The notes below the pieces were generated by a model. That model saw only the letters and a list, made by a program, of their open reading frames with translations. It searched no databases and had not been told where the DNA came from. Below, piece after piece: positions 7,928 through 51,992 of a DNA stretch of 61,504 nt. Source of the DNA: Pyrinomonadaceae bacterium. Its GTDB lineage: Bacteria > Acidobacteriota > Blastocatellia > Pyrinomonadales > Pyrinomonadaceae. The stretch is from contig DATNFX010000313.1 of NCBI GenBank assembly GCA_035606195.1, positions 1 through 61,504 on the forward strand, in the 5' to 3' direction. Both the position numbers and the translations under genes were made by a program. Every line of letters begins with the position of its first letter. Position 1 is the stretch's first letter.

Positions 7928-8525
7928 TAGGCTTGGGGTCGTCTTGCTTGACTTTGAAGGGGTTGCCGCATCCGCTGGACGAGTGTAGCAATAAGGGGAA
8001 TCGTAATCCGTAATACCCTTCTTTATTTGTTTGTTGCAAAACGAAGAACGCGTGTTAATCGTGCCGAGAAAACTACTTCACCACTTATTAATCCTGTGGA
8101 GTTAACAAGCATTTAGCGCCTCAAACTCGAAGCTCGCGCATAGGCTAGCTCGCCCGCTGCCTAAATGAATCGAACAATGCAAATTGTTGAAGCAAACAAG
8201 GTTGACACTGGTGCCGAGGGCGGGGAGTCTAACACCTTAAAAGTGCTTGGCAATCAGGACAAATGGCAATATTCCTAAAAGGTTTTTAGTGGTTTGCGTA
8301 TTTTGAACGAATGGGTTCACGTAGTCATGATCATCGGCATCGGGTTCAAATAGAGTAACAGGCGATCCAATTAGTTCGCCCAGTCGGCCTGCCAACAGCG
8401 TTGACAGAGTAACCCCAAAAGTCCCATACTCCGCACAACCTCGCCTTGCTTCAGTGGTATCGTTTCAGCCCAGGTCGACAACTCCTATAGTAATTACATG
8501 GCCGATAACTCGGCAGGGGTGATCT

Positions 8526-9260
8526 ATGGTTGGGACATCGAAAAAGGTTGATATTGAAAACAAAATTCTCACTGCGCTACCTCATGAAGAGTTAGTGCGC
8601 ATTCTACCGCACCTCGTAAGTGCTCGCCTCGAAAAGGGGGAAGTGATTTATGTAACCGGGGACAGAATCCGCTATGTCTACTTTCCGAGCAACGGTTTGA
8701 TTTCATTGCGTTGTGTAAGCTCCTCAGGTTCCACGGTCGAAGTGGCAATGGTAGGTGATGAAGGTATTATTGGATATCCCGTGATTCTAGGTAATTGGTT
8801 GATGCCCTACGAGGTCACCGTTCAAATTACTACCGACGTATTAAGGATCAAAGCGGATGACTTCCAGGAAGAGTTCAATAAGAGAGGAGCGCTATACCAC
8901 CTCACCTTGCGTTATCTTAATTTAATTATTGCGGAAATCTCGCAGTCATCTCTCTGTCATCGTTTTCACACTGTCGAAGAAGGACTCATCCGCTGGTTGC
9001 TCATCGCTCACGATCGATTATTCTCGAGTAGCCTTAACGTCACGCACGAGACTATTTCGAACTCTCTGGGTGTGCCGAGGACAGGTGTGACAATGGCTGC
9101 AGGTGCGTTACAGCGCGCAGGGATAATTCGTTACACTCGTGGCAAGATTGTTATCCTCGATCGGGCTAGACTGGAGGCCAGCTCATGTGAGTGTTTTCGA
9201 ATAGTCCACGATGAGCTCAACCGCTTTTCGAAGGAACAAATTCCGTCCTCGATTTCTTAA
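8526..9260 (+). CDS. Crp/Fnr-family transcriptional regulator (cNMP-binding-like domain plus C-terminal HTH)
   Basis: 244 aa. The N-terminal beta-roll-like region (GEVIYVTGDRIRYVYFPSNGLISL) and C-terminal HTH (THETISNSLGVPRTGVTMAAGALQRAGIIRYTRGKIVILD) are typical of the family. Confidence 0.85.
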   Translation: MVGTSKKVDIENKILTALPHEELVRILPHLVSARLEKGEVIYVTGDRIRYVYFPSNGLISLRCVSSSGSTVEVAMVGDEGIIGYPVILGNWLMPYEVTVQITTDVLRIKADDFQEEFNKRGALYHLTLRYLNLIIAEISQSSLCHRFHTVEEGLIRWLLIAHDRLFSSSLNVTHETISNSLGVPRTGVTMAAGALQRAGIIRYTRGKIVILDRARLEASSCECFRIVHDELNRFSKEQIPSSIS

Positions 9261-9281
9261 CATGAAAAAACAACATCGTAC

Positions 9282-9400
9282 TTTGTCTAATTTCAGACTC
9301 AGTCGACTTCACGACAGACGAGACATCTCATCTGATGTAGAAAGTTCGTGCTCTGACTAAACGGAAGACTCCAAACCCAGAGGATTCCCCTCCCTTACCC
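9282..9400 (+). promoter_or_regulatory. conserved leader element, copy A (paralog at 46995-47112), containing TGTCT-N6-AGACT
   Basis: Shares with copy B the blocks TTTGTCT.ATTTCAGACTCAGTC, TTCACGACAGAC, GTAGAAAG and GCTCTGACTAA, plus a weaker ..GAGGA.TC...CCTCCC tail. Same order and orientation in both copies. Confidence 0.6.
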
Positions 9401-9589
9401 CCATTAGTCAAAAAGCAGTTCAAGTAAATAAGTTTCGCTGTTTTTAACTGACGGAGACGAGTCTGTGGGATAGCTTTAGGTTTCATGGCCTGTTTATTCG
9501 GGCCCCCCATCACTCTCATGCCTAGATACCGTCACTCGCAAATCAGAAATAAGTCCAGGGCAGGAATGTAAGTAAGGAGGCCAACTCTG

Positions 9590-10114
9590 ATGATTCAGGA
9601 CGTCAGCGATAGACCAACTTGGTACGCAATCTGCACAAATCCTCAGCAGGAAGACCGAGCTTGCAGTAATCTGCGCGCGTGGGGAGTAGAATGCTTGAAC
9701 CCCAAAATTAAGGAGTCTCGACGTAATCATTTCACGGGCATCGCCGAAGTCATTTCCAAACCATTGTTCCCGCGTTACATTTTCTCACGCTTCGAACTGA
9801 AAGGCGCATTTCACAAGATCAGTTTTACCAGGGGTGTCCATCGTGTGGTAAGTTTCGACGGTCGGCCCACTCCAATTGATGAAGACGTGATCGCGTTGAT
9901 TCAGTCGCGCGTAGGCAGCGATGGATTCGTCAAGATAGGTGCGAGCTTGAAACCTGGCGATGTGGTGCGAGTCAAAGATGGTCCGTGGAAGGCCCTGACC
10001 GGTGTAGTAGAGCGTGAGTTCAAGACAAACGAGAGGATCACGCTCCTATTGCAGTCCATCAAGTATCAGAGTCGCCTGACAATTGAAAGTCATTGGGTTG
10101 AGAAGATCAGTTGA
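9590..10114 (+). CDS. NusG-paralog transcription antiterminator (RfaH/LoaP/UpxY/TaA-like)
   Basis: 174 aa. AAGGAGG RBS at 9574-9580. NGN-like N-terminus (WYAICTNPQQE...KPLFPRYIF) and KOW motif (LKPGDVVRVKDGPWKALTGVVE). Confidence 0.8.
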   Translation: MIQDVSDRPTWYAICTNPQQEDRACSNLRAWGVECLNPKIKESRRNHFTGIAEVISKPLFPRYIFSRFELKGAFHKISFTRGVHRVVSFDGRPTPIDEDVIALIQSRVGSDGFVKIGASLKPGDVVRVKDGPWKALTGVVEREFKTNERITLLLQSIKYQSRLTIESHWVEKIS

Positions 10115-10290
10115 TTTACGTTAGGCCCTTCAGTCCTTGATTGAAGTAAATGATTTAAGCGTTCCCCATAGTGACCTCCCCGAACAGTGAACGAATATGA
10201 GTGAGTCCGCGCGGCTTTATGTCCGCGGTCTCATTCGAACCGGTTTCACCAGGTAATCCCAGTTTCGTAGATTGCACCTCTGGTGCAGAG

Positions 10291-10309
10291 TGCGGTAGCT
10301 CTGCCTGCC
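10291..10309 (+). promoter_or_regulatory. ops-like box TGCGGTAGCTCTGCCTGCC (copy 1)
   Basis: Contains GCGGTAGC, which matches positions 2-9 of E. coli ops (GGCGGTAGCGTG). 17/19 identical to 47271-47289. On the non-template strand of the leader, 65-71 nt before the first megasynthase start. Preceded by a TGCACC-TCT-GGTGCA hairpin (10273-10287). Confidence 0.5.
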
Positions 10310-10355
10310 CAACCTATCCTAGACAATCAAATTCATATTTTCGACCAGGCGACTT

Positions 10356-13300
10356 TTGTCAATGAGTACAAACACCCTCGCTATCCGTGAGCGCAACGCT
10401 GAAGTGCCGTCTACTTCGCTGACGCTCGTCGAGCTTCTAAGAAACCGAGCGCGGCTCCACGCCGATAGGGCTGCATATATCTTTCTCTCGGATGGAATCA
10501 CCGAAGAGACCACGCTGACCTGGGGAGATCTCGACCTCCAGGCGCGTGCCATGGGCGCATGGCTGCAATCGCTTACTGCTCGCCGAGAACGAGTACTCTT
10601 GCTTTACCCTGCCGGTCTCGAATACATCACCGCTTTCTTCGGGTGCTTGTATGCGGGTGTAATCGCTGTTCCAGCTTATCCGCCAAGGCAAAACCGGAAC
10701 CTGCGCCGCTTGCACTCGCTGATAATCGACGCGCAGCCGGCTGTCGCTTTAACTACCCGACCAATCTTGTCTCGAGTAATCAATTCATTCGGCAAAAATC
10801 CGGAGCTTGCAATGCTTCGCTGGGTTGCGTCTGAAGATAGACCAACCGCAGAACCGGAAAACTGGCAAGCGCCTGAAATCGCCCCGACTGACCTTGCGTT
10901 CTTGCAATACACATCAGGATCGACGTCGGCCCCCAAGGGCGTGATGCTGAGTCATAGCAATCTCGTCCAAAACGATCGTTTGATACATAAAGCTTTCGGC
11001 CAAACAGAACAGTCAGTCATAGTGAGTTGGCTGCCGCTTTATCACGACATGGGCCTTATCGGCGTCGTTCTTCACGCGTTGTCGGCCGGCGCGCGGTGCA
11101 TTCTCTTGTCGCCGACGGCGTTTTTGCAGCAGCCCTTTCAGTGGCTTCAGACTATCTCTCGCTATCGTGCCACCACGAGTGGTGGGCCAAACTTTTCCTA
11201 CGATCTCTGCGTGCGAAAGATTACCGATGAACAACGGGCCACGCTGGATCTGAGCTCGTGGAGTGTTGCCTTCAATGGCGCTGAAACTGTTCGCGCCGAA
11301 ACGATGGATAGGTTCGCCGCGGCCTTCGCCCCCTGCGGTTTTCGTCGCGAAGCGTTCCGGCCTTGTTACGGATTGGCCGAAGCAACGTTGATTGTGTCTG
11401 CTCGCGGCGAGTCCAGAGCTGAAGAGAACCGGCCTCTCGTCAAACACGTTTGCAAAACATCGCTGGAACAAAATCGCGTGATCGAGTTGGGGAAGAAAAC
11501 TCCAGACGCCCGCACAGTGGTCACGTGTGGTGCGCCGCTGTGCGCTCGGGAAGTGATCATCGCCAATCCCGATACATTGACGGGATGTGCGGCCAATGAG
11601 GTGGGTGAGATCTGGGTGTCAAGCCCAAGTGTCGCCGCCGGCTATTGGAACAACACCGAAGAGAGCGCGCGTACATTTCGAGCTGTTCCAAATGGTAGTA
11701 AAGCGACGTATCTGCGCACCGGCGACCTGGGCTTTCTTCTTGACGGTGAACTTTTTTTGACCGGTCGCCTCAAAGATTTGATCATCACGCGCGGGCGGAA
11801 CCTTTACCCTCAGGACATAGAAGGTACTGTTGAGCAGTGCGATCCGTCGCTTCGTCCGGGCTGTGGAGCTGCGTTCTCGGTAACGGTCGAGAGTGAGGAG
11901 CGCGTGGTCATAGTCCACGAGATAGAACCTCGGCGCACGGTGGAACTACAGTCTCTCATTACCTCAATACGCCAGGCCATTAGTGAAGAACATGAAGTAG
12001 TGGTGTATTCGGTTGCACTCGTCAAAGCTGGAATGGTCCCGAAGACATCCAGTGGCAAAATTCAGCGGAAAGCATGTCGCGAACTGTTTTTAGAAGGCGG
12101 ACTGGCGCCGATTGCCTATTGGCTGGAGACGCCTTTCGGCCATAAAGAAAACCTGTCCGATTCTCTGCGGCCCGCAGACTCTCTGAACGGAGCAGAGACG
12201 CTGAATTGGCTTCGCCTTCAGTTTGCGCAAGTTGTGAACATCAGCGCGGCCGAGATCGACATTCATCAGCCAATCCTGCGCTATGGTTTGGATTCACTGC
12301 TGGCGACTGAGTTGACACATCGCATTGAGTCAGAGCTGGGGATAGCAGTTCCGCTTACGAGTTTGTTGGAAAGCCCCACGATTGAGCAACTCGCAGCCAG
12401 TATTTGCGGCGAGGCTTTCGTCCGGGATAACGAAGAGCTGGTGGGACCTACACCTCTGACGAACACATCCTCAGAATATCCACTCTCATTCGGACAACAG
12501 TCACTCTGGTTTCAGCACCGCATGGCGCCGGACAGCGCCGCCTACAATCTCGCCAGTGCGTTGCGTCTCCGAGGACCTCTGAATGCGGTAGCTCTGGAGC
12601 GCGCCTTTGCATCTCTGGTGCAACGTCACGCGATGCTCAGGACCACCTTCTCTCAAAATAGCCTCGCTCCGCGCCAGCAAATACACGAAGAAATGCCCGT
12701 TTGCTTCGAGTTCGCTGACGCCTCATCGTGGAGCGAAGCCGCTGTACGCGAGTATTTGTTAAAGGAAGCGGAAGGGCCTTTCGACTTGTCCGCAGGACCA
12801 CTGCTACGGGTGAACCTGCTGAAGCGAGCTGACGATGAACACGTGTTGCTCGTCGCCGTTCATCACATCATCGTCGACTTCTGGTCCCTGTCAGTTTTGA
12901 TGAAGGAACTGGGTGTGCTCTACGAAGCGCACCGGAATGGTATGGATGCCAACCTGCCACCTTTGCAGTTGCAATACACGGATTACGTGCGCCACGAGAT
13001 GGAAGATCTCGAAGGGCCGCGCGGTAAGAGACTGTTGGAGTATTGGCAGCAACAGCTTGGTGGAGTGTTGCCGTTATTGAATCTCCAAACCGACTGGCCA
13101 AGACCCTCGCTGCAAACATTTCGCGGCTCTTCACAGAGTTTCAAGGTTAGCGCCGGCCTTACACACAAACTCAAAGAGCTTGGTCGAGAAACTGGCACAA
13201 CTCTGTACATGGTCCTGCTCGCGGCGTTTCAGCTGTTGCTCCATCGATACACGCAACAGAAGGAATTCCTGATCGGCTCACCGGTTGCGGGTCGTAACTC

Positions 13301-16300
13301 AGCGGCGCTCGCGTCTGTGATGGGATATTTCGTTAATCCTCTGGTTCTGCGAGCTGACATCTCCGGCGATCCCTCATTCATCGATTTGCTCGCGCGTGTG
13401 CGAGACACGGTGCTGAGCGCGCTGGCCCACCAGGATTGTCCCTTTGCTTTGCTTGTGGAACACCTCGAGCCAACACGTGACCCCAGCCGAAGTGCTCTGT
13501 TTCAACACATGTTTGTTATGCAGCAGTCCGCTATTGCGGGGGTGGGAGGACTATCGGAACAACTCGGCGAACTAGCCATGGAGCCAATCGCTTTGGATCG
13601 GCATGTTTCGATCTTCGATTTGAGGCTTGAGGTCGCACAAGCGGAAAAAACGCTGATCGGCTCGATGGAATACAACAGTGATTTGTTCGAGGCGACGACG
13701 ATCGAACGCATGCTGGGCCACTTTGAAACGTTGCTACAGAGCATTGTCGCGAACCCGGAAAAATGTGTTTCCAAACAAGCACTCCTCACGCCTGCCGAGA
13801 ATCAACAGTTGCTCGCTGAATGGAACGATACAACGGTGGATCGACCAGATAAGGCGCTGCATCAGCTCATTGAGGCCCAGGTCGCGCGGACGCACAATCT
13901 CGTCGCGGTGATCTTTGAAGATCAAAAGGTAACTTATGCTGAACTCGATCAACGGGCAAACGCGCTTGCCGCTGAATTGCGGCGGCGCGGGGTTGGACCA
14001 GACGTAATCGTCGCCATATGCATGGAGCGTTCAATCGAACTGGTGGTCGCTCTCCTTGGAGTATTGAAGGCCGGGGGGGCCTATTTGCCTCTCGATCCGG
14101 ATTATCCACGCGACCGGCTTCACTTCATGATTGAAGACTCGCGGCCCCCCGTGCTGCTGACGCAGAAACACGTGCGGCACAACCTGCCGAATTTCGCGGC
14201 ATGTCAAACGCTGTGTGTCGACGACGAAGTCTTCCCCGCAGCTCAAATAAACTCGGAAGTGACTGCCTCCAACCTGGCATACGTCATCTACACTTCGGGC
14301 TCTACGGGCTGGCCCAAAGGCGCGATGAACACGCACGCGGGTATCGTCAATCGTTTGCTGTGGATGCAGGAACAGTACGAATTGACCTCCACCGACTGTG
14401 TGCTCCAGAAAACGCCTTTCAGTTTTGATGTTTCGGTGTGGGAGTTTTTCTGGCCGCTGCTGACGGGCGCAAGGATGGTCCTGGCCAGGCCCGGTGGGCA
14501 CCAGGATCCCGCTTACCTCGCGGAGTTGATCGAGCGCGAGCATGTCACGACGATTCACTTCGTGCCGTCGATGTTGCAGATGTTTCTGGCAAACGCTGAC
14601 GCGAGCCGCTGCGACAGCTTGAAACGAGTGATCTGTAGTGGCGAGGCGTTGTCAAATGAACTGCAAGAGCGTTTCCACGCACGGCTCGGCGCGGAACTCC
14701 ACAACCTCTATGGCCCAACCGAAGCATCGGTAGATGTCACCTACTGGAAATGTGAGAGAGATGCGCGGCGGGCGGTAGTACCTATCGGACGGCCAATAGC
14801 CAACCTCGAGATCTTTTTGCTCGATGCGCTCGGCCATCCGGTTCCTGCCGGCGTTGTGGGTGAATTACACATAGGCGGCGTTGGGCTGGGCCGTGGTTAT
14901 TTCAATCGTCCTGAGTTGACCGCAGAACGTTTCCGACCGCACCCGTTTTCCAGCAAACCGGGAACTCAACTCTATCGCACAGGCGATCTCGGGCGCTATC
15001 GACCAGATGGTCAAATCGAGTTTCTGGGGAGGGTGGATCAGCAAGTTAAGCTGCGGGGCTTTCGCGTCGAGCTGGGCGAGGTTGAAGAGGCGCTCAGGGC
15101 GCACACTGCAGTGCGCGATTGTGTGGTAACAACAGCCGAAATCCTGCCCGGAGACATGAGGCTCGTCGCGTACGTGGTCCATGAAGGTAACGCCAGCGCA
15201 AACTCGGAAGAACTGCGGCGTCATTTGAGAGTAAGACTGCCGGAATACATGGTGCCGTCATATTTCGTGGCGCTCGAAACAATACCCCTTCTGCCAAATG
15301 CCAAGGTTGATCGTCGCAACCTGCCGCCGCCATCCGACCTGAGACTCGAGTTAACAAAAGAATTCGTTGCGCCTCGGAATCAGATCGAGAAGCAGTTGGC
15401 GGCGATCTGGGTTGAGGTCCTGGGCCTGGGGCAAGTGGGAGTTGATGACAACTTCTTCGAACTCGGCGGGCACTCGTTGCTGGCGATGCAGATAGTGGCT
15501 CGCATTAACCAGTTGTACCTGATCGATTTTCCACTGCGCAGGATGTTCGAAACTCCCACGGTCGCAGGAATCGCGCAATATCTTTCGGCGATGCGCCGCG
15601 CGGATGCGAAGCAGGAACAGCAACCGAGCAAACGCGCGCCGCGCCAGGTTGACTTACAACTCTCGTTTGCACAGGAGCGACTATGGTTTCTTGATCAGCT
15701 TGATCCTGTTAACTCAGCCTATAACATGCCAATCGTTCTTCGCATCCGCGGGCGACTAGACCTCGCTGTGTTGGAGCGTAGCGTGCAGGAAATCATCCGC
15801 CGCCATGAGATCTTGCGCGTGAGCCTCACCAACGTGAAGGGAAAGCCGGTGCAGGTGATTGCGCCGTTCGAAGAGTGGCGGTTGCGTGTGTTTGATCTGT
15901 TTGGTACCGCCAAATCGGACCGTTGGAATGAAGTGATTCGTTATGCGACGAAAGAAGCACAACGACCTTTCGATCTCACGCAAGGCCCACTGCTGCGCGC
16001 TGCCGCCTGGCAGATTGACGTGAATGACTATCTTCTTGTGCTCGTGATGCACCACATCGTCAGCGATGGCTGGTCGTTGGGAGTGTTCGCTAACGAATTG
16101 AAGACTCTCTACAAGGCCTATAGCGATGGCCGGCCTTCGCCGTTGCCCGATTTGTCGATTCATTACTCCGACTTCGTTCACTGGCAGCGTGAACGCCTTG
16201 CGAGTGAAGCAGCAGCCGAGCAACTTGATTACTGGAAGCGTCAACTTGCAGGACGTCTGCCGGCGCTCGTGTTGCCGGGCGAACATTTGCGCCGGCCGGC

Positions 16301-19300
16301 GCCGTCGGTCCAGGTTGCCGCCGAATCTTGCGCGCTTCAGTCACAATTGATCCAGAGGCTCAAAGAATTCAGTTGCGCGAGTGGGGTCACTCCGTTCATG
16401 ACTCTGCTGGCAGTCTTTCAGATCCTGCTGCAACGTTACACCGGGCTTGATGATGTTCTCGTAGGCACTCCGGTCGCCGGCCGCACGCGCGTCGAGACCG
16501 AAACCCTGATCGGATTGTTCACGAACACACTCGTTCTTCGTACCGATCTTTCGGGTAATCCGACGTTCCTTGAATTGCTCGGTAAAGTGCGCGAAACGAC
16601 ACTCGAAGCGCACGCGCACCAAGACGTTCCGTTTGAAATGCTCGTGGAGGTGTTACAACCGGAACGAGACTTAACCCGCACGCCTCTTTTTCAGGTGATG
16701 ATTGTGTTTGATCCACCTCTGCCGGAGGTCGATCTTCCTGGGTTGCAACTGGAACAGGTCGAACTGCCTGCCGCCGCACCCAAATTCGATTTGATTCTCT
16801 TTCTGAAGGAACGGGACGGTGAACTGATCGCGCGCTTTGAATATGACACCACACGTCTCGATCAAAAAACCGTGCAGCGTTTGGCGAGGCATTTCCAGAC
16901 TCTGCTGGTGAACGCGCTCGCGCACGCAGAAACGCACATCTCGGATCTCGAGCTAATGACCAAAACCGAGGCGCAGCGTCTCCGCAACGATTGGAACGAT
17001 ACGTACAAACAGTACCCGCGAGAGGTTTGCTTGCATCAGCTATTCGAAGCACAGGCGGCGCGTACACCGGAGCTCGTTGCTTTAGTTGCCGGCCGCGAAT
17101 GCTTGAGCTACCGCGAGTTGAATCAGCGTGCTAATCGGCTGGCCCATCATCTTCGCGCGCTGGGTGCCGGCCCGGAGTCTTTGGTGGGCGTGCTGCTAAA
17201 TCGCTCAACTTCGCTTGTGGTGGCGTTGCTTGGAGTGCTCAAAGCTGGAGCCGCGTATGTTCCACTCGATCCGGACTACCCGCGCGAGCGACTGCGTTTG
17301 ATGATCGACGCAAACATCAATGTGTTGGTCACGCAGGAGAACCTGAAATACAACTTGCCACCATACAACGCCAGCGTCACTTGTCTGGATGCAGAGTGGG
17401 GAAGTATTGCGCTCGAGAGCGGCGACGATCCCGTGTGTTTGAACACACTTTCACAGCTCGCCTATCTGATCTACACCTCCGGTTCCACTGGTAAACCCAA
17501 AGCTGCGGCTATTGAGCACCGTAATGTCGTCACGCTCATGCATTGGGCGCGCGAGCTGTTTACCACGATCGAGCTCGGGGGTGTGCTGGCTTCGACGTCC
17601 GTCTGCTTCGATCTATCAGTGTTCGAGATCTTCGTTCCTCTGTGTTGGGGCGGCAAGGTGATACTCGCTGCGAATGCGCTTGAGTTACCAACGCTCAACG
17701 CAGCGAGTGAAGTGACACTAATCAATACCGTGCCGTCGGCCATGACCGAACTGATCAGGATAAGCGGTGTTCCCAAATCTGTGCGGACGGTAAATCTCGC
17801 CGGCGAGGCGCTCCATCATTCGCTGGTGCAGCGGATTTACGAATTGGAAGGCGTGGAGCGAGTGCTAAACCTTTACGGCCCTTCAGAAGATACAACTTAC
17901 TCGACCGGGGCGACGATCGACAGATGTGACTCTCAAGCGCCCACGATAGGCCGGCCAATTGCCAACACGCAGGCTTACATACTCGATATTCATCAGAAGG
18001 CACTGCCGATCGGCGTCGCCGGCGAGCTTTACGTCGCGGGCGATGGACTTGCTCGCGGTTATTTCAATAGACCTGATCTCACGGCGGAAAAGTTCATTCC
18101 AAATCCGTTCGCAGGCGCACCGGGCATGCGCATGTACCGCACTGGCGATCTCGCACGCTATTTGTCAGACGGGCAAATCGAGTTTCTTGGACGCAGCGAT
18201 CATCAGGTGAAGCTACGCGGCTTTCGTATCGAACTCGGTGAGATTGAGACGATGCTTCGCGAACACCCTGAGATACGCGACGCGGTAGTTATCATGCGTC
18301 AACAGAATGAAGATCAAGTCCTTGTGGCGTACGTGGTGAATGAGAGCGAGCAAGCGGTGACGCCGAAGAAGTTAAAAGCATATCTTTCCAAACGTCTTCC
18401 AAAGCACATGGTACCGGCGTTCATCGTACCCCTCGCGGCACTGCCATTAACTCCGAACGGCAAGGTCGATCGCCGTGCTTTGCCTTCACTTGAAACCAGC
18501 GATGAGGTTCAGGAAGACGCGATTGTCTTGCCGCGCACAGATATTGAATCGAGGCTGACGGGCCTGTGGTCACAATTGCTAAAACGGCGACAGATCGGAG
18601 TCCACGACGACTTCTTCGCGCACGGTGGGCACTCACTACTCGCCGTTCAACTCGTCTCACGCATTCGTGATGAGTTTCAGGTTGACCTGCCACTGCGCAG
18701 TGTCTTCGAGACAGCGACGATCGCTGAGCTTGCGAGGCTTGTCGAAAATGCATCGCTGTTTTCCTCGCCGATTCCCAAAATTCAGCGGTCGAAGCCGGCG
18801 CCGCTATCGTTCGCTCAGCAGCGGCTCTGGTTTCTGGATCGACTGGCGCCTGGAAGTTCCGCGTACAACATCTTCGGCGGTATACGTTTACGCGGCGAAC
18901 TGGACCAGACGGCATTTGCGCAATCCCTGAACGCCATCGTCGAAAGACACGAGATTCTGCGCACGGCGTTCACCACAGTTGACTGGCAGCCTGCGCAGGT
19001 CGTCTCCGCGGCGCAACCGGTCTCGCTCAGTTTCATAGATCTGCCTGGCGCGACCGAAGACGAGCGGGAGACGAAACTGCGAACACTGGCGAATGACGAA
19101 CTGAGTCGTCCTTTCAATCTGTCCGATGGGCCTTTACTGCGCTTGATTCTCCTGCGACTTAATGAAGAAGAACACGTGGCGCTGGTGACAATGCACCACA
19201 TCGTCGCCGATGGATGGTCCCTGAACATCTTTGTGAAGGAGTTCGCCGAGTTTTATCGAGCGTTCCACACCGGTCAACCCGCGCAGCTCGCGACATTGCC

Positions 19301-20213
19301 GATTCAATATGCCGACTATGCTCACTGGCAGCGCGCATGGTTTGATGACGAGAGGCGGGAAATTCAGCTCGATTACTGGCTTCGCACGTTGACAGGCACA
19401 CTGCCTGTGCTCGAGCTTCCAGTGGACCACGCTCGTCCATCTGAGCCGACTTTGCGGGGCGAGAAACTGGTTCATAAGTTTTCCGCTGAACTTTCCGAAA
19501 AGCTGCGCGAACTCAGTCGTCGCGAAGGCGCGACGCTCTTCATGGTCCTGCTGGCCGCGTTCAAAACGCTGCTATACCGATACACGAACCAGGACGATTT
19601 GATCGTCGGCACCGCGGTGGCCGGGCGTAATCGATCCGAGCTCGAGGGTCTCATCGGGATCTTCATCAACATGCTCGTATTGCGAACAAACGTCTCGGGG
19701 AATCCGACATTCGTTGAGTTGCTGCGGCGCGTGCGCGAAGTGATGCTCGAGGCTTACGCACACCAGGACGTGCCGTTTGAGCGACTCGTCGAGAAGTTAC
19801 AGCCCAATCGCACACTGGCCCGCTCGCCGTTCTTTCAGGTTGCCTTTGGGCTGCAGCACGAGCGGATCCAAAATCTAGCTTTACCGCGACTCGAGCTGAG
19901 TCCTGTCAGCTTCGACACGGATCTGGCGAGGTACGACCTGACGTTGTGGGTCTTTGAAAACGAAAGCGAATTGGAAGCGTCCTGGACGTTCAGCAAGGAC
20001 CTCTTCCGGCCGGAAACGATCGGGCTTATGAACCTGCGCTTTCAGACGCTGCTGCTCAGTGTCGTCAAAGAGCCCGAGCTACGGCTTAGTGAATTGGAAA
20101 TGCATTCCGACGAAGAGCGAAGACACGTCGCGATTCGCGAGCGTGAGTCGGAAGCATTGAGTGTAAGTAAGTTACTTTCCGTCAAACGGCGGGCCGTCAG
20201 AGTAGGGCAGTGA
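10356..20213 (+). CDS. lipoinitiation NRPS: FAAL-ACP-C-A-T-C-A-T-C
   Basis: Track start is TTG 10356; ATG 10362 is an equally plausible start. FAAL motif YTSGSTSAPKG (from 10908). Carrier serines at 12294, 15474 and 18633. C motifs HHIIVDF (12861), HHIVSDG (16050) and HHIVADG (19194). A cores YTSGSTGWPKG (~14289) and YTSGSTGKPK (17472). Ends in a C domain with no cis A-T. Confidence 0.95.
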   Translation: MSMSTNTLAIRERNAEVPSTSLTLVELLRNRARLHADRAAYIFLSDGITEETTLTWGDLDLQARAMGAWLQSLTARRERVLLLYPAGLEYITAFFGCLYAGVIAVPAYPPRQNRNLRRLHSLIIDAQPAVALTTRPILSRVINSFGKNPELAMLRWVASEDRPTAEPENWQAPEIAPTDLAFLQYTSGSTSAPKGVMLSHSNLVQNDRLIHKAFGQTEQSVIVSWLPLYHDMGLIGVVLHALSAGARCILLSPTAFLQQPFQWLQTISRYRATTSGGPNFSYDLCVRKITDEQRATLDLSSWSVAFNGAETVRAETMDRFAAAFAPCGFRREAFRPCYGLAEATLIVSARGESRAEENRPLVKHVCKTSLEQNRVIELGKKTPDARTVVTCGAPLCAREVIIANPDTLTGCAANEVGEIWVSSPSVAAGYWNNTEESARTFRAVPNGSKATYLRTGDLGFLLDGELFLTGRLKDLIITRGRNLYPQDIEGTVEQCDPSLRPGCGAAFSVTVESEERVVIVHEIEPRRTVELQSLITSIRQAISEEHEVVVYSVALVKAGMVPKTSSGKIQRKACRELFLEGGLAPIAYWLETPFGHKENLSDSLRPADSLNGAETLNWLRLQFAQVVNISAAEIDIHQPILRYGLDSLLATELTHRIESELGIAVPLTSLLESPTIEQLAASICGEAFVRDNEELVGPTPLTNTSSEYPLSFGQQSLWFQHRMAPDSAAYNLASALRLRGPLNAVALERAFASLVQRHAMLRTTFSQNSLAPRQQIHEEMPVCFEFADASSWSEAAVREYLLKEAEGPFDLSAGPLLRVNLLKRADDEHVLLVAVHHIIVDFWSLSVLMKELGVLYEAHRNGMDANLPPLQLQYTDYVRHEMEDLEGPRGKRLLEYWQQQLGGVLPLLNLQTDWPRPSLQTFRGSSQSFKVSAGLTHKLKELGRETGTTLYMVLLAAFQLLLHRYTQQKEFLIGSPVAGRNSAALASVMGYFVNPLVLRADISGDPSFIDLLARVRDTVLSALAHQDCPFALLVEHLEPTRDPSRSALFQHMFVMQQSAIAGVGGLSEQLGELAMEPIALDRHVSIFDLRLEVAQAEKTLIGSMEYNSDLFEATTIERMLGHFETLLQSIVANPEKCVSKQALLTPAENQQLLAEWNDTTVDRPDKALHQLIEAQVARTHNLVAVIFEDQKVTYAELDQRANALAAELRRRGVGPDVIVAICMERSIELVVALLGVLKAGGAYLPLDPDYPRDRLHFMIEDSRPPVLLTQKHVRHNLPNFAACQTLCVDDEVFPAAQINSEVTASNLAYVIYTSGSTGWPKGAMNTHAGIVNRLLWMQEQYELTSTDCVLQKTPFSFDVSVWEFFWPLLTGARMVLARPGGHQDPAYLAELIEREHVTTIHFVPSMLQMFLANADASRCDSLKRVICSGEALSNELQERFHARLGAELHNLYGPTEASVDVTYWKCERDARRAVVPIGRPIANLEIFLLDALGHPVPAGVVGELHIGGVGLGRGYFNRPELTAERFRPHPFSSKPGTQLYRTGDLGRYRPDGQIEFLGRVDQQVKLRGFRVELGEVEEALRAHTAVRDCVVTTAEILPGDMRLVAYVVHEGNASANSEELRRHLRVRLPEYMVPSYFVALETIPLLPNAKVDRRNLPPPSDLRLELTKEFVAPRNQIEKQLAAIWVEVLGLGQVGVDDNFFELGGHSLLAMQIVARINQLYLIDFPLRRMFETPTVAGIAQYLSAMRRADAKQEQQPSKRAPRQVDLQLSFAQERLWFLDQLDPVNSAYNMPIVLRIRGRLDLAVLERSVQEIIRRHEILRVSLTNVKGKPVQVIAPFEEWRLRVFDLFGTAKSDRWNEVIRYATKEAQRPFDLTQGPLLRAAAWQIDVNDYLLVLVMHHIVSDGWSLGVFANELKTLYKAYSDGRPSPLPDLSIHYSDFVHWQRERLASEAAAEQLDYWKRQLAGRLPALVLPGEHLRRPAPSVQVAAESCALQSQLIQRLKEFSCASGVTPFMTLLAVFQILLQRYTGLDDVLVGTPVAGRTRVETETLIGLFTNTLVLRTDLSGNPTFLELLGKVRETTLEAHAHQDVPFEMLVEVLQPERDLTRTPLFQVMIVFDPPLPEVDLPGLQLEQVELPAAAPKFDLILFLKERDGELIARFEYDTTRLDQKTVQRLARHFQTLLVNALAHAETHISDLELMTKTEAQRLRNDWNDTYKQYPREVCLHQLFEAQAARTPELVALVAGRECLSYRELNQRANRLAHHLRALGAGPESLVGVLLNRSTSLVVALLGVLKAGAAYVPLDPDYPRERLRLMIDANINVLVTQENLKYNLPPYNASVTCLDAEWGSIALESGDDPVCLNTLSQLAYLIYTSGSTGKPKAAAIEHRNVVTLMHWARELFTTIELGGVLASTSVCFDLSVFEIFVPLCWGGKVILAANALELPTLNAASEVTLINTVPSAMTELIRISGVPKSVRTVNLAGEALHHSLVQRIYELEGVERVLNLYGPSEDTTYSTGATIDRCDSQAPTIGRPIANTQAYILDIHQKALPIGVAGELYVAGDGLARGYFNRPDLTAEKFIPNPFAGAPGMRMYRTGDLARYLSDGQIEFLGRSDHQVKLRGFRIELGEIETMLREHPEIRDAVVIMRQQNEDQVLVAYVVNESEQAVTPKKLKAYLSKRLPKHMVPAFIVPLAALPLTPNGKVDRRALPSLETSDEVQEDAIVLPRTDIESRLTGLWSQLLKRRQIGVHDDFFAHGGHSLLAVQLVSRIRDEFQVDLPLRSVFETATIAELARLVENASLFSSPIPKIQRSKPAPLSFAQQRLWFLDRLAPGSSAYNIFGGIRLRGELDQTAFAQSLNAIVERHEILRTAFTTVDWQPAQVVSAAQPVSLSFIDLPGATEDERETKLRTLANDELSRPFNLSDGPLLRLILLRLNEEEHVALVTMHHIVADGWSLNIFVKEFAEFYRAFHTGQPAQLATLPIQYADYAHWQRAWFDDERREIQLDYWLRTLTGTLPVLELPVDHARPSEPTLRGEKLVHKFSAELSEKLRELSRREGATLFMVLLAAFKTLLYRYTNQDDLIVGTAVAGRNRSELEGLIGIFINMLVLRTNVSGNPTFVELLRRVREVMLEAYAHQDVPFERLVEKLQPNRTLARSPFFQVAFGLQHERIQNLALPRLELSPVSFDTDLARYDLTLWVFENESELEASWTFSKDLFRPETIGLMNLRFQTLLLSVVKEPELRLSELEMHSDEERRHVAIRERESEALSVSKLLSVKRRAVRVGQ

Positions 20214-20256
20214 ATTAGGATTCTCCGGGCAAGAGCTGCAGAGAAGAAATTCGAAT

Positions 20257-21294
20257 ATGAGTAGTCCGGCTCAATTCAAACGGGCGCGCAATGCTGTCCG
20301 GTTGATGTCGTCATCACTCGTCAGGCCCTACTACCTTGACGATGAGCGGAGAATGCCGCTGGTGATTGAACCCTCCTCGACCGACCTCGATCTCGTTTCA
20401 TGGGCCAGCGATCGCCGCCAGTTCATTGCGGACGAGTTATCACGTCACGGTGCGTTGTTGCTGCGCGGTTTCAGCATCCGCTCTGTGCAGCAGTTTGAGC
20501 AGTTTATTGACGTGACATCGGGTGGCGCGCTGCCGTACAGTGAACGCTCATCTCCACGCAGCCAGGTCAGTGGCAACATTTTTACGTCGACTGACTATCC
20601 CGCATCGGAAAAGATATTTCTGCACAATGAGCAGTCATATAACCTCCAGTTTCCTCTGAAGATTTATTTCTTTTGCCTCTTGCCCGCGGAAGTCGGGGGC
20701 GAAACGCCCGTGGCCGATACGCGACAACTTCTCGCTTCGATCCGGCCCGATATTCGCCGCCGCTTTTCAGAACAGGGCTACCTGTACGTTAGAAATTTCG
20801 GCAACGGCTTTGGGCTGTCATGGCAGGAGACCTTCCAAACGAGCAGCAAAACTGAAGTTGAGCAGTATTGTCGACAGCACCAGATCGGGTGCCAGTGGTT
20901 GGCCGGCAACCGATTAAGAACGTCGCAGCGACGCGACGCGATCGCCACACACCCGCGGACGGGAGAACAAGCGTGGTTCAATCATGCGACCTTTTTCCAC
21001 GTCTCGACTCTGGAACCGGTAATCCGTGAACGCGTGCTGGCGGAGTTTCCGGAAGTCGCTCTCCCAAACAACACCTACTACGGTGACGGCTCGCGTATTG
21101 AAGCTGAAACGATGGACCACCTTCAAGGCGTTTACCTGCAACACAAGATCCCCTTCACGTGGCAACAGTTTGATGTGCTGATGCTCGACAATATGCTCGC
21201 CGCGCACGGACGTGAAGCGTTCAAGGGACAGCGAAAAGTCGTAACCGGCATGGCCGATCCTAATCTCTGGAAAGATTGTAAAGCGAAAGACTGA
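20257..21294 (+). CDS. TauD/TfdA-family (SyrP-like) Fe(II)/2-oxoglutarate hydroxylase, paralog 1
   Basis: 345 aa. HxE facial-triad motif FLHNEQSY and distal LAAHGREAF. Size and genomic context are typical of hydroxylases acting on carrier-bound amino acids. Confidence 0.8.
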   Translation: MSSPAQFKRARNAVRLMSSSLVRPYYLDDERRMPLVIEPSSTDLDLVSWASDRRQFIADELSRHGALLLRGFSIRSVQQFEQFIDVTSGGALPYSERSSPRSQVSGNIFTSTDYPASEKIFLHNEQSYNLQFPLKIYFFCLLPAEVGGETPVADTRQLLASIRPDIRRRFSEQGYLYVRNFGNGFGLSWQETFQTSSKTEVEQYCRQHQIGCQWLAGNRLRTSQRRDAIATHPRTGEQAWFNHATFFHVSTLEPVIRERVLAEFPEVALPNNTYYGDGSRIEAETMDHLQGVYLQHKIPFTWQQFDVLMLDNMLAAHGREAFKGQRKVVTGMADPNLWKDCKAKD

Positions 21295-21299
21295 AAACT

Positions 21300-22325
21300 A
21301 TGAGCGGGAGTTTCGTAGCCGTCAGACGCAAGACGGTAAGGTTGAGTAGCGCGGAACTGGTAACGACCGGTTACCTCTCGGCTGGCGCCAGGAATCTTCC
21401 TTTAGTGATCCAGCCAAAGGTTGAGGGAGTTGACCTCATCGGTTGGACTGAATCGCAGCGCGCTCTTATCGAATCAGAGTTGTTGGGACATGGCGCCATC
21501 CTGTTTCGCGATTTCGGCGTCGAGTCTGAGACGCACTTCGAAAAGTTCGCCCGCACGCTCACTCCGGAATTGATCGACTATCTGGAGCGCGCCGCGGCAC
21601 GACGCGAGGTCGCCCCGAACATTTTTACCTCGACCGAATATCCGGCCGACCAGGCAATCCCGCTGCATCATGAGATGTCGTACTCGCACAACTGGCCCGG
21701 CAAGATTTACTTCTACTGCGCGCAACCAGCGTTAAGTGGAGGGGCAACTCCGATATCGAACGACCGCGTAGTGATCAACCGCATCGACCCGGCGATCAAA
21801 GAGCAGTTCAGACGGAAGAAGGTCATGTACGTCCGAAACTTCGGTGTGGGACTCGACCTTTCATGGCAGGAAGCTTTTCAGACTACTGATCGCGCCGTCG
21901 TGGAAAGATACTGCGCCGGCGTGCACATGACGTGCGAGTGGCGCGACGGGGATCGACTGCGAACGCGATCTGTGCGGCAGACGTTCGCGACTCATCCTGT
22001 TACTGGCGAGATTGTCTGGTTCAATCACGCACACATGTTCCACATCTCAAACGTGGAGCATTCGGCCCGCGAGGCTTTGCTGGCCCACTTCCGTGAAGAC
22101 GAACTGCCGCGAAATGCGTTCTACGGTGATGGTTCACCGATTGAAAGCTCAGTGCTCAGCGAGATTAGAGAAGTTTACGCTGAGGCGGCCGTACGTTTTT
22201 GCTGGGAGGAAGGCGACGTGCTTTTACTCGACAACTTCCTTACCTCACATGGTCGTGAGGCCTTCACCGGGCCTCGCCGGATCCTGGTTGCAATGGCCGA
22301 TCTCTTTACCCCGAGCACGGTCTAA
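21300..22325 (+). CDS. TauD/TfdA-family (SyrP-like) Fe(II)/2-oxoglutarate hydroxylase, paralog 2
   Basis: 341 aa. PLHHEMSY and LTSHGREAF motifs. Collinear similarity to the preceding gene, which ends 5 nt upstream. Confidence 0.8.
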   Translation: MSGSFVAVRRKTVRLSSAELVTTGYLSAGARNLPLVIQPKVEGVDLIGWTESQRALIESELLGHGAILFRDFGVESETHFEKFARTLTPELIDYLERAAARREVAPNIFTSTEYPADQAIPLHHEMSYSHNWPGKIYFYCAQPALSGGATPISNDRVVINRIDPAIKEQFRRKKVMYVRNFGVGLDLSWQEAFQTTDRAVVERYCAGVHMTCEWRDGDRLRTRSVRQTFATHPVTGEIVWFNHAHMFHISNVEHSAREALLAHFREDELPRNAFYGDGSPIESSVLSEIREVYAEAAVRFCWEEGDVLLLDNFLTSHGREAFTGPRRILVAMADLFTPSTV

Positions 22326-22383
22326 CCACAAAAGCCACATAACTCACATTAATTGAAGATCTAATCGGAAGGACAAGAGACAC

Positions 22384-23700
22384 GTGACAGAACAAGTCGT
22401 GGAGGGGTTCGAACTCTCGAGGCAACAACGGCGCATATGGTCTATGCAAGATAACGGCGACGCCTTTCAATCGCAGTGCGCGATCCTGCTCGAAGGCGCT
22501 TTGAATAAACGGGCGCTGCGTCAAGCCCTGCAAATAGCCATCGCGAGTCACGAAATTTTGCGCACTTCGTTCCGCTCGTTGTCCGGCATGAAGTTTCCCA
22601 TCCAGGTGATTAGCGAAGATGCAGATGCACCAGCTCTAAATGAGTGTGATCTGAACTGCGAACTCGAAGAACTCCTGTTGGAAGAACTTCGTACGCCTTT
22701 CGATCTGGATGCCCCCTCTCTGATTCGCTGCAAGCTACTGAATCTTTCGCAGGACAGGCATGTATTGATTTTGGGGCAGCCGGCGTTGTGCGCCGACGCC
22801 GAATCGCTCGTTCAGTTGTTTATCAAGCTGGGCCGCTTCTACGCATCATCTGTAACGGGCAAGGCCATTGTTGAGGAGCCCGTGCAGTTTGTGGACTTTT
22901 CAGAGTGGCAACGCGAACTGCAGACCTCCGCGGATGCGGCAGCCCAGAGAGAGTACTGGAGCCGGCAGATCACGACGGCAAACCCGGATTCACTGGTGCT
23001 TCCGACGGAAAGTAGTGAACGAACGGAAAATTTTGCGCCACGCCCGTTTAATTTCGAGATCCCCCGGGACATATCACAAAGCAGCGAAGCTCTCGCGCTT
23101 GCGCTTGATGCGTCAATCGAGACGCTGTTGTCGTCATGCTTACAAATCCTGCTGTGGCGTCTCACCGGACAGTCAGAAATTGTGACGGGCCATTTTTCGA
23201 ATGGCCGGCGGATCTCACACCTGCGTGAATGTCTCGGCCCGGCCGGCGATTATTTACCTCTTGCTGGTCGCTTCGATCGAAAGCTCCGATTCTCCGAGGT
23301 GGTGAAGCGCAACCATGAGGCAGTAAAAGCAAATCGCATCCACGAAGAATACTTCTCGCAAACAGACGAGAGCCAACTTCCTTTGCTCGCGAAGTTCGAT
23401 TTCATGGAATGGCCCAAACCATCGCTGGCTGCTGACGTGCGTTTCTCTCTCCTCAGAGTTTATAGCACCGCCGATCGGTACAAAGTGAGACTTTCCGTGA
23501 CGCGCCGGGATTCGACGCTAATGGCCGTGCTTCACCACGACGAGGCTTTGTATACATCGGAGTTCGCCGAACGCTTCGCGGGTCAATTCACAGCTCTCAT
23601 GCAAAGCGCATTGGCGCAGCCGGATTCGTCGATTGCCGATCTTGATGTGCTCGGCGAAGAGGAACGCCGGTTGGTGATCGATCAGTGGAACGATACCGCC
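22384..23700 (+). other. condensation-like domain lacking both catalytic histidines
   Basis: Collinear with C domains (N-terminal LSRQQRRIW), but the DRHVLILGQPALCADAESL segment replaces ..HHxxxDGWS. The 3' boundary is approximate. Confidence 0.7.
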
Positions 23701-33242: not shown

Positions 33243-33281
33243 ATTTTCACGGGGTTCTGGGTAGTGCCTCAATTTCAATTG

Positions 33282-33380
33282 TTCTCTTTGCAACCTCTGT
33301 GTTCTCTGTGCCTCTGTGGTCATAGGAATGCACGATACAACAACCACAAGACACAGAGAGCACAGAGGTTGCAAAGAGAA
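33282..33380. repeat. long imperfect inverted repeat (39/38-nt arms, 22-nt loop) with internal CTCTGTG tandem units
   Basis: Left arm 33282-33320 (TTCTCTTTGCAACCTCTGTGTTCTCTGTGCCTCTGTGGT). Right arm 33343-33380 is its near-perfect reverse complement: the first 20 nt are identical, followed by 2 mismatches and a 1-nt gap. Confidence 0.85.
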
Positions 33381-33420
33381 GTTCAGCAAGAGACTTAAAG
33401 GGTAAATCAGGTTTCGAACA

Positions 33421-46994: not shown

Positions 46995-47112
46995 TTTGTC
47001 TGATTTCAGACTCAGTCCGATTCACGACAGACAGCAACGTCTCAGGTTGGGTAGAAAGGGGCGGCTCTGACTAATAGATGTTCTATCCGAGGACTCGCTC
47101 CGACCTCCCCAG
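46995..47112 (+). promoter_or_regulatory. conserved leader element, copy B (paralog of 9282-9400), containing TGTCT-N6-AGACT
   Basis: Same conserved blocks as copy A, in the same order and orientation. Sits in the 433-nt gap between the NRPS stop (46902) and the MbtH-like gene. Confidence 0.6.
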
Positions 47113-47270
47113 TAGAGAGAAAGCCCTGAGCAACTACGTAGTACCTATGTTGTTGTGTGGACACTTCATGCTTACGAGCTCTCGGTAATTAGAACAAGCC
47201 TGCGGACGACTTGTCCGAGTAGGCATCCACACATTTTGTCTTCTCATTTAAGATGCCACTTGGCTTCGGA

Positions 47271-47289
47271 TGCGGTAGCTGTGCCGGCC
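47271..47289 (+). promoter_or_regulatory. ops-like box TGCGGTAGCTGTGCCGGCC (copy 2)
   Basis: 17/19 identical to 10291-10309 and contains GCGGTAGC. Lies 65 nt upstream of ATG 47336. Confidence 0.5.
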
Positions 47290-47335: not shown

Positions 47336-47569
47336 ATGGACCGAGATGACGCAGAAGATCAAACAATCTATAAAGTTGTGCTCAACCACGAAGAGCAGTA
47401 CTCGATTTGGCCTGCCGATCGCGAGAATGCACTCGGTTGGTTTGACGCCGGTAAAACCGGTATGAAGGCCGAATGTCTGGAGTACATCAAAGAGGTCTGG
47501 ACTGACATGAGACCTCTGAGCCTGCGCAAGCATATGGAGGAAGCTGCCGCAAAGCAGTCGAGCGCGTAG
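47336..47569 (+). CDS. mbtH: MbtH-like protein
   Basis: 77 aa. GGAGGG RBS at 47324-47329. Hallmark [24 protein letters not shown]...AECLEYI with the conserved Trp residues. Confidence 0.9.
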
Positions 47570-47655
47570 CCCGGCATGAACTCCTGAGCTCGATCGTTTA
47601 CGCTGCGCCTACCCGCACCCACCTGAGTTGTTTAAGTTCCACAACGGTAAAGACA

Positions 47656-48657: not shown

Positions 48658-48736
48658 ACCGGATCTTCTCTGAGGCTTGCACCAGAGAATAAGCACCTTC
48701 ATGCAATCGAACCCAAAGCTAAAGGAGCCGCTCTCG

Positions 48737-49558: not shown

Positions 49559-49576
49559 GCACGATCAGATAACGAG

Positions 49577-51982: not shown

Positions 51983-51992
51983 GAGAGCAGAC

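Follow-up and report, generated by a model that had tools for sequence, protein, structure and literature searches.

The contig DATNFX010000313.1 (assembly GCA_035606195.1), a 61,504-nt stretch of DNA from a soil acidobacterium (Pyrinomonadaceae) called the window in what follows, carries at 9590-10114 a gene for a NusG paralog. This protein is probably a lineage-specific, RfaH-like elongation and processivity factor, dedicated to a cluster of nonribosomal peptide synthetase (NRPS) and polyketide synthase (PKS) genes that starts 241 nt downstream. Between the gene and the cluster lies a composite leader element, made of a covarying hairpin followed by GCGGTAGCTYTGCC, which adjoins paralogs of the family and is strand-specific. 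Its core, GCGGTAGC, is identical at 8 positions of 8 to the non-template DNA (ntDNA) hairpin of the E. coli ops site. In our best reading, the paralog would act as a processivity factor that loads at an ops pause stabilised by a hairpin, in a hybrid of the E. coli RfaH/ops and Bacteroides UpxY/opsX systems. Coordinates are collected in Table 1.

In the window, the leader of the first NRPS gene reads TTGCACC-TCT-GGTGCAG-AGT-GCGGTAGCTCTGCC at 10272-10305, and its hairpin (10272-10288) appears in the minimum free energy (MFE) fold. A covariance model of the element, R1, was seeded with seven in-register instances. When the window alone was searched with it, filters off, exactly two good sites were obtained: site 1 (10264-10308) ends 62 nt before the NRPS ATG, and site 2 (47245-47288) ends 56 nt before the start of the mbtH-like gene. 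Footprinting of the leader among relatives of 78% to 60% protein identity left the hairpin-ops block as the only conserved part. No conserved promoter was found by this footprinting between the paralog and site 1, which would fit a common transcript of paralog and NRPS gene. An intrinsic terminator 3′ of the paralog was ruled out, since no terminator-like site was present in 7800-10400 and the hairpin at 10272-10288 has no U-tract. A scan of 7800-10500 against Rfam (E ≤ 10) gave two chance-level matches only, and JUMPstart (RF01707) was unmatched.

The same words emerged from the flanks of the family without any prior choice of motif. In an unbiased 8-mer enrichment of paralog flanks, CGGTAGCT, GCGGTAGC and TGCGGTAG ranked highest, and of the 86 loci, 42 have GCGGTAGC on the + strand and 1 has it on the - strand (p ~1e-46). 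Over 85 loci, the 250 nt downstream of the paralog contain 27 occurrences of GCGGTAG on the + strand and none on the - strand; the corresponding numbers for the 250 nt upstream are 13 and 2. The anchored consensus is tGGc.caaa.T-GCGGTAGCT.TGcC, with the extended form tGGc.caaa.TGCGGTAGCT.TGcC. At core position 6, T prevails with 49 instances, followed by C with 13 and A with 2. The E. coli 12-mer, GGCGGTAGnnTG, is found complete at four sites beside paralogs, each with a hairpin of its own upstream. These 12-mer matches (GGCGGTAGCCTG) are at 6699 in locus L054, at 2513 and 2563 in L069 and at 6730 in L074, the L069 pair being in tandem, 50 nt apart.

Upstream of the core, the 5′ arm of the stem varies both in sequence and in distance, and the stem ends 2-4 nt before the core. 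The mean best stem is 5.6 bp, compared to 4.08 (+/-0.23) in shuffles. Loops are TCT, TTT, CTT, GTT, ATTG, TGGC and similar, and not of the UNCG type. Covariation was pronounced: 88% of cells are paired, versus 30-42% with slid partners, and double-sided changes affect 74 cells versus 27 in shuffles, a value that 0 of 500 shuffles reached. On four of five measures the observed value was unreached by the 500 shuffles, and 49 of the 500 reached the count of pairs changed on both sides. At locus L165 a C-G pair of the stem has become G-C, a compensatory change. The two top stem pairs include 12 and 17 U-G wobbles; such wobbles are workable solely on the sense strand, which points to an RNA or single-strand structure on that strand. 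An alternative helix, in which the 3′ arm of the stem would pair with CTYTGC and GCGGTAG would be looped out, was rejected, as it was paired in 65.7% of cases versus 64.2% after shuffling and showed no covariation.

Searched over 1.04 Mb, R1 gave 66 matches, 50 of which adjoin a paralog on its own strand (86 loci); 29 lie downstream of it, at 43-365 nt, and 21 upstream, at 18-296 nt. The search was also run in reverse, scanning metagenome contigs with the DNA pattern GGNNNNNAGTGCGGTAGCTYTGYC alone. It recovered 76 contigs, with a co-directional paralog beside the element in 49. When both flanks were at least 800 nt long, the paralog was adjacent in 29 of 40 contigs and none was adjacent in the other 11. 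These paralog-less elements look like site 2 of the window. Of the 16 contigs that extend at least 3 kb downstream, 10 contain NRPS/PKS domains.

Linkage to megasynthases was measured by tblastn of the 86 loci with the A, C, FAAL, KS and AT domains of the window. Co-directional NRPS/PKS domains lie downstream of the paralog in 46 of the 71 loci with at least 3 kb of downstream sequence, whereas upstream flanks include such domains at about 9 of 83 loci. Among element-bearing loci, 37 of 43 have NRPS/PKS genes downstream. The order Crp/Fnr regulator-paralog-NRPS is repeated in the nearest relatives; in more distant members the paralog stands ahead of other biosynthetic genes (OTCase-like plus carbamoyltransferase, FAAL-NRPS, radical SAM). 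A preliminary description of this DNA, made from the letters alone, had placed the paralog at the head of a megasynthase block, and this is borne out, as the block is co-directional with the gene and 36.5 kb long.

Table 1. Features of the window, with positions, strand and supporting remarks
Feature	Position	Strand	Remarks
RfaH-like, specialised NusG paralog	9590..10114	+	174 aa; NGN residues 10-104, beta-barrel KOW ~118-172
Crp/Fnr-family regulator gene, possible cluster activator	8526..9260	+	Pfam cNMP_binding + HTH_Crp_2
Shared upstream box, copy 1	9282..9319	+	palindrome GTCTAATTTCAGAC at 9286-9299; direct repeat D20
Site 1, composite element before NRPS	10264-10308	+	covariance model R1, 54 bits
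Hairpin TTGCACC-TCT-GGTGCAG, proposed nascent-RNA pause hairpin	10272..10288	+	covariation, MFE fold
ops-type core GCGGTAGC (10292-10299) + conserved TCTGCC, proposed ntDNA hairpin/pause/loading site	10292..10305	+	
Putative target transcription unit 1, NRPS-PKS megasynthase block	10356..46902	+	six co-directional genes; 36.5 kb
Very long intergenic hairpin between PKS gene and 4493-aa NRPS gene	33282..33380	+	
Shared upstream box, copy 2	46995..47032	+	GTCTGATTTCAGAC; palindrome site 46999-47012
Site 2, hairpin + core GCGGTAGC at 47272-47279, then TGTGCC	47245..47288	+	R1 17.2 bits, E 7e-4
Putative target transcription unit 2	47336..54338	+	MbtH-like, OTCase-like, PhyH dioxygenase, Lant_dehydr_N, M28 peptidase

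The open reading frame (ORF) of the paralog starts with ATG and is preceded, 9 nt upstream, by the Shine-Dalgarno sequence AAGGAGG (9574-9580). Pfam NGN (PF02357) matches the product at residues 10-104 with 53.3 bits (E 4.2e-14), well over the gathering cutoff of 22.2, and Pfam KOW matches residues 122-142 below threshold (14.2 versus 22.3 bits, E 0.04). The NCBIfam profiles for RfaH, UpxY, LoaP and NusG all align full-length (residues 11-168, reaching 168-173), and AlphaFold2 builds a C-terminal barrel of five strands. For these two reasons we take as real the NGN plus KOW architecture put forward in the preliminary description. Its use of protein size as a mark of specialised paralogs is a weak argument, because E. 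coli RfaH, at 162 aa, is shorter than the 174-aa paralog and E. coli NusG, at 181 aa, is longer.

The family was placed by ranking against curated profiles, in place of a tree with LoaP, UpxY and TaA references. The window protein scores 99.5 bits with RfaH profile TIGR01955 (cutoff 144.5) and 71.5 with NF006534 (cutoff 124), followed by UpxY NF033644 (55.3, cutoff 100), LoaP NF033641 (49.2, cutoff 125) and NusG TIGR00922 (45, cutoff 135.7). With ten diverse relatives included, the order is RfaH (91-116 bits), UpxY (54-75), LoaP (43-61) and NusG (29-53), and none of these proteins reaches any of the curated cutoffs. E. coli RfaH is also the closest solved structure: the NGN of the paralog superposes on that of RfaH 8pen_P with a root mean square deviation of 1.5 Å at 31% identity, and also on NusG structures, and the best whole-chain match is the 'fully recruited' RfaH with a beta KOW. 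By BLASTP, RfaH aligns full-length (51 bits) and NusG over the C-terminal 120 aa only (43 bits). The SIFGR loop of NusG, which has a role in Rho binding, is SIKYQ in the window protein. From profiles, structure and BLASTP together, we conclude that the paralog is RfaH-like and specialised, outside all curated families, and not the housekeeping NusG.

Among 5.8 billion proteins searched, 152 relatives were found, the closest being P0001 with 94% identity; those with a name are from Acidobacteria/Pyrinomonadaceae, and many are tagged 'RfaH' by JGI. An exhaustive HMMER search returned 56 clusters at E ≤ 1e-30 and 1067 at E ≤ 1e-10. In a scan of species-representative genomes, the top 80 loci all belong to Pyrinomonadaceae, Blastocatellia or unclassified Acidobacteriota metagenome-assembled genomes (MAGs), ten of which supply two loci each. 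Paralogs paired within a genome are 37-48% identical, and have differing hairpins on a common core.

RfaH is autoinhibited by an alpha-helical-hairpin C-terminal domain (CTD) that refolds, held by an E48-R138 interdomain salt bridge. In the paralog, AlphaFold2, run on an 81-sequence family alignment, predicts a beta KOW with five strands at 125-172 (pLDDT, the predicted local distance difference test score, 69-84) and a mean pLDDT of 84.5. The E48 equivalent is K57, with a lysine or arginine at this position in 47 of 50 paralogs; R149, which corresponds to R138, does not vary. The beta-barrel prediction means that the paralog is probably not autoinhibited, with the proviso that AlphaFold2 shows one state and that a minor alpha state is possible. 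According to Zuber in 2018, RfaH reportedly contacts ops through K10, H20, R23, Q24 and R73. Over the 50 paralogs, the equivalents of R16, H20 and R73 (R23, N27 and R81) are invariant or nearly so, that of K10 is N, H or K, R23 has become A30, and Q24 has become W31. With these contact residues replaced, the identical DNA would be read, if at all, by a different surface.

Positions 30 and 31 of the paralogs (RfaH R23/Q24, the T6 pocket) change together with a non-T base at ops position 6 (Fisher p 6e-8 and 2e-5). The columns of K76 and R62 score alike, so that we keep this covariation as a lead and do not retain it, significant as it is, as proof of readout. Only two loci have A at ops position 6 (GCGGAAGC), L015 (5433-5476) and L050 (6203-6247). 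Both come from one MAG (SMAG_U1897); their paralogs are 39% identical, and have S and Q in place of the dominant W31.

A mechanism can be proposed along the following lines. Transcription would start 5′ of the paralog, at a box common with the second operon and possibly under Crp/Fnr control. About 150 nt past the paralog stop a short nascent-RNA hairpin would form, and 2-4 nt later GCGGTAGCTCTGCC would be transcribed, its core folding into the same small non-template-strand DNA hairpin as in E. coli ops. Hairpin and T-G step would then pause RNA polymerase; the 3′ end of the stem is 10-14 nt upstream of the conserved T/T-G positions, a spacing that would fit the geometry of hairpin-stabilised pauses. 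The NGN of the paralog may read the exposed non-template hairpin and take the clamp/gate-loop site from housekeeping NusG. Because the paralog ORF is just upstream on the same presumed transcript, new protein would be delivered beside the paused polymerase. The modified complex would withstand pausing and Rho or intrinsic termination, so that the 36.5-kb unit is completed, and the beta-barrel KOW might couple it to the ribosome. The same protein would load at site 2 to serve the operon of mbtH, tailoring and NRPS genes.

Cluster-situated NusG paralogs are already known as a kind (RfaH, UpxY, LoaP, TaA), and of these E. coli RfaH is closest, whether profiles, pairwise alignments or NGN structures are compared. 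According to Saba et al. 2024 (PMC11685472), the non-template hairpin 5′-GCGGTAGC is encoded at every E. coli ops site; the same core stands here in the sense strand of operon leaders. The target operons are likewise very long, the window has more than one site per factor, and the equivalents of R16 and R73 are retained. Differences are the phylum (Acidobacteriota versus Proteobacteria), a paralog encoded beside its target and present in several copies per genome, a score below the TIGR01955 cutoff, the predicted beta KOW with K for E48, and the replaced equivalents of K10, H20, R23 and Q24. E. coli ops has no upstream pause hairpin (PMC11685472), unlike the acidobacterial element with its covarying one; in the main class, to which the window core conforms, T also stands for G1 at ops position 1 and the T-G step lies 1 nt away from its E. 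coli position.

The hairpin brings the element closer to Bacteroides, where opsX combines a pause hairpin with an ntDNA hairpin and where the hairpin-encoding upstream duplex gives UpxY its specificity (PMC11685472). In both systems locus-specific paralogs lie in or beside the target operon, several per genome, and a composite leader of about 40 nt has a pause hairpin and then an ntDNA hairpin with a GCG..AGC stem, pausing being a prediction on the acidobacterial side. Hairpins differ within a genome on a common core, which may parallel the specificity of UpxY, and in 21 loci the element precedes the paralog, the order seen in Bacteroides. Unlike UpxY, the targets are NRPS/PKS rather than capsule loci, the core is GCGGTAGC and not YGCGNAGCR, the UpxY profile stays below its cutoff (55 versus 100), and the window paralog is upstream of its element. 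No UpxZ-like gene was seen, although no search aimed at one was made; the gene after the window paralog is an NRPS.

Two further systems share the biosynthetic targets. LoaP acts on the dfn and mln polyketide clusters of Bacillus velezensis, and a leader hairpin is required for its activity (PMC12691694). LoaP and the present protein are both NusG paralogs tied to polyketide/NRPS-type clusters, with a leader hairpin in each case; in contrast, LoaP binds a UNCG RNA hairpin, whereas the present loops are non-UNCG, an ops core is present, and the LoaP profile scores 49 of the 125 bits of its cutoff. We know of no ops-type DNA signal for LoaP. In Myxococcus xanthus, the NusG-like gene taA lies inside the myxovirescin/TA PKS/NRPS cluster (PMC7593976). 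The window paralog shares this kind of setting.

About 14% of RfaH homologues are predicted to be 'monomorphic' beta proteins (Tabilo-Agurto et al. 2026 preprint, PMC13015549). Those studied are constitutively active, ops-independent in E. coli reporters and recruited in cis, serve virulence and lipopolysaccharide operons, lie in or beside long operons, and are without some ops-contact residues and the Rho-binding loop (PMC13015549). The paralog resembles them in its predicted beta CTD, the probable absence of an E48-type autoinhibition, the loss of some ops contacts and of the NusG Rho-binding loop, and its position next to an operon. It differs in that the acidobacterial family keeps a conserved ops-type site, also far from the gene, and in its association with NRPS/PKS clusters.

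Several observations weigh against a factor loaded at an ops pause. The family falls short of the curated RfaH cutoff (99.5 versus 144.5 bits), four E. coli ops-contact residues are replaced (K10 by N, H or K, H20 by N, R23 by A, Q24 by W), and the T-G step of the main class is displaced by 1 nt from that of E. coli ops. No R1 match was found beside the paralog in 36 of the 86 loci, and the covariation of residue and base is confounded by phylogeny, K76 and R62 scoring similarly. Monomorphic RfaH homologues proved ops-independent when assayed in E. coli (PMC13015549). Pausing, binding, readout of DNA over RNA, co-transcription and the antitermination outcome are, finally, all matters that we infer from sequence.

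That last point bears on a LoaP-like mode of action, in which the paralog would bind nascent RNA (the hairpin with a GCGGUAGCUYUGCC tail) and travel with the polymerase as a ribonucleoprotein. Covariation and U-G wobbles in the stem indicate a structure in sense-strand RNA or a single strand; LoaP, a factor of polyketide clusters, does use a leader RNA hairpin (PMC12691694), and most RfaH ops-contact residues are unconserved in the paralogs. RNA and non-template DNA are inseparable by sequence alone, both being sense-strand. Nevertheless, the identity of the invariant 8-mer with the E. coli ops ntDNA hairpin would then be an otherwise unexplained coincidence, the loops are not UNCG-type, and the LoaP profile gives the second-lowest score, so that we regard this mode as unlikely. 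We think it still less probable that the paralog is a 'monomorphic' RfaH homologue acting purely in cis, independent of ops and brought in co-translationally, the element being a polymerase-intrinsic pause or attenuator that it does not read. The beta KOW of the AlphaFold2 model, K57 in place of E48, and the paralog immediately 5′ of the element in 29 loci would all fit, as would the behaviour of monomorphic homologues, ops-independent in E. coli reporters and encoded beside long operons (PMC13015549). However, the second window element is 37 kb away from the gene, and 11 of 40 element-bearing metagenome contigs have no adjacent paralog; action at such a distance needs an address. Moreover, the element precedes the paralog in 21 loci, and the invariant core, with the changes at residues 30/31 that accompany position 6, suggests readout by a protein.

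The element might also be a promoter of the sigma-54 or extracytoplasmic function (ECF) type, or a Crp/Fnr operator, unrelated to elongation control. TGGCGC-N5-GC is superficially like the sigma-54 -24/-12 motif TGGCAC-N5-TTGC, activator genes of sigma-54 are near some loci, and a Crp/Fnr gene adjoins the paralog in the window. The spacing is GG-N8-GC, though, and not the canonical GG-N10-GC of sigma-54; the covarying 5′ arm, the variable loop length, the G-U wobbles and the strongly conserved downstream GGTAGCT.TGCC would all be left unexplained. Crp-like genes are present at just 19 of 83 loci, and the palindromic box at 9286-9299 and 46999-47012 is a better operator candidate. A sigma-54 promoter was rejected on the spacing and the 5′ arm, and this whole class of explanations appears highly improbable to us. 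To the idea that the ORF is simply the housekeeping NusG of the organism we give practically no credence. It has for it the NGN plus KOW architecture and a predicted beta KOW like that of NusG. Against it stand the 45 bits with TIGR00922 for a cutoff of 135.7, a NusG alignment limited to the C-terminal 120 aa, and SIKYQ for SIFGR. The secE-nusG-rplK neighbourhood was not found at the locus, where a Crp/Fnr regulator and an NRPS adjoin the paralog, and genomes have several copies, ten MAGs having two. The preliminary description had set housekeeping NusG aside, and proposed a specialised, megasynthase-linked paralog; both views agree with the top rank of the RfaH profile, the NRPS/PKS genes downstream in 46 of 71 loci and the ops-type leader element, the last being the signature expected of an RfaH-like factor.

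A factor loaded at a hairpin-stabilised ops pause thus appears to us the best account. Going further, it is possible, though doubtful, that the family represents an intermediate in the evolution of RfaH, target-adjacent and not autoinhibited, yet addressed by ops, the variable hairpin giving each paralog the locus-specific address of its own cluster. If so, the several paralogs of one genome would be a natural set of orthogonal antitermination modules. In a literature search, no publication connected RfaH or ops with Acidobacteria, and the phylum is unmentioned in the text supplements of PMC7593976. What appears to be new is the fusion of an exact E. coli-type ops core to a putative pause hairpin of Bacteroides type, its use by apparently non-autoinhibited, multi-copy paralogs, and what looks like a dedication to NRPS/PKS clusters in Acidobacteriota. 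The ops non-template hairpin would then be at work outside Proteobacteria, with proteins deprived of RfaH autoinhibition and of most known DNA-contact residues. This bears on a stepwise model for the evolution of RfaH, in which a monomorphic ancestor that acted in cis gave rise to an autoinhibited factor acting in trans, and offers a concrete test system. Hairpin-ops element and paralog together suggest how Acidobacteria may transcribe giant biosynthetic operons to completion. These bacteria are rich in silent, uncultured NRPS/PKS clusters; should paralog and ~45-nt leader element be needed for full-length transcription, heterologous expression would require that both be retained or co-expressed. 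The element is also an easy sequence marker of operon starts inside NRPS/PKS clusters.

The putative target unit 1 starts at 10356 (TTG) or 10362 (ATG). Its genes encode a starter of the fatty-acyl-AMP-ligase (FAAL) type with C-A-T modules, two TauD dioxygenases, C-A-MT-T, KS-AT-KR-DH-ACP-luciferase-like, and an NRPS of 4493 aa. The 15 nt before the start of the first NRPS gene contain no Shine-Dalgarno sequence (10340-10364 compared), and mbtH, after site 2, has GGAGG (47322-47338), on which account we dropped a missing Shine-Dalgarno as an RfaH hallmark. A 13-nt identity with site 1 (TGCGGTAGCTCTG) lies within this first NRPS gene at 12584-12596, where ~0.001 would be expected by chance; not being kept in the orthologues L165, L009 and L001, it was discarded as an ops-like site and taken as chance. 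The hairpin at 33282-33380, cited in the preliminary description as a strong hairpin to be read through, exists and is stronger than claimed, with 32-nt arms, 94% complementary, and an MFE of -73.8 kcal/mol (z -7.7). No other inverted repeat of the window is as strong, and it is unique there. With no U-tract, it is a doubtful termination signal; it is possibly an obstacle or roadblock, an RNA processing or stability site, or a mobile-element remnant. Terminator-like sites within the block are not in excess over shuffles (27 versus 22.6 expected; 21 versus 21.8 expected).

The shared upstream boxes, 9282-9319 and 46995-47032, are 38 nt long and 89% identical, with the shared block reaching ~80 nt, and contain the palindrome GTCTRATTTCAGAC. 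They lie ~250-300 nt 5′ of the paralog and of the second element, and are a candidate common operator or promoter of units 1 and 2. Elsewhere the palindrome was found in only three metagenome loci (L104, L135 and L142). Perhaps it is the operator of the adjacent Crp/Fnr regulator. Of 83 related loci, 19 have a Crp/Fnr gene 5′ of the paralog, and all 19 are of the type with the element downstream of the paralog or without an R1 element. A second enriched motif, GCATCATAGCGCAAAG, was seen ~200-280 nt 5′ of the paralog start in 10-13 loci (L018-L028, L048); it occurs with or without the ops-type element, is absent from the window, and may be a clade-specific promoter or operator. Just outside the cluster, and divergent from the Crp/Fnr gene, a DUF7003 protein is encoded at 7094-7798 on the - strand (Pfam E 2e-63).

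Unit 2 is headed by the MbtH-like gene (47336-47569, Pfam E 8.6e-20), and a further NRPS gene follows it from 54687. Its 801-aa Lant_dehydr_N protein (49577-51982) consists solely of the N-terminal lantibiotic-dehydratase (glutamylation) domain, and may be a tailoring enzyme of the small-LanB/PEARL type. A 69-nt direct repeat, D17, occurs at 1504-1572 and 54365-54433 with 78% identity. Each copy starts just past a stop codon (1500 and 54338) and is rich in short GC hairpins; it may be an intergenic element of the repetitive extragenic palindromic (REP) or terminator-like kind.

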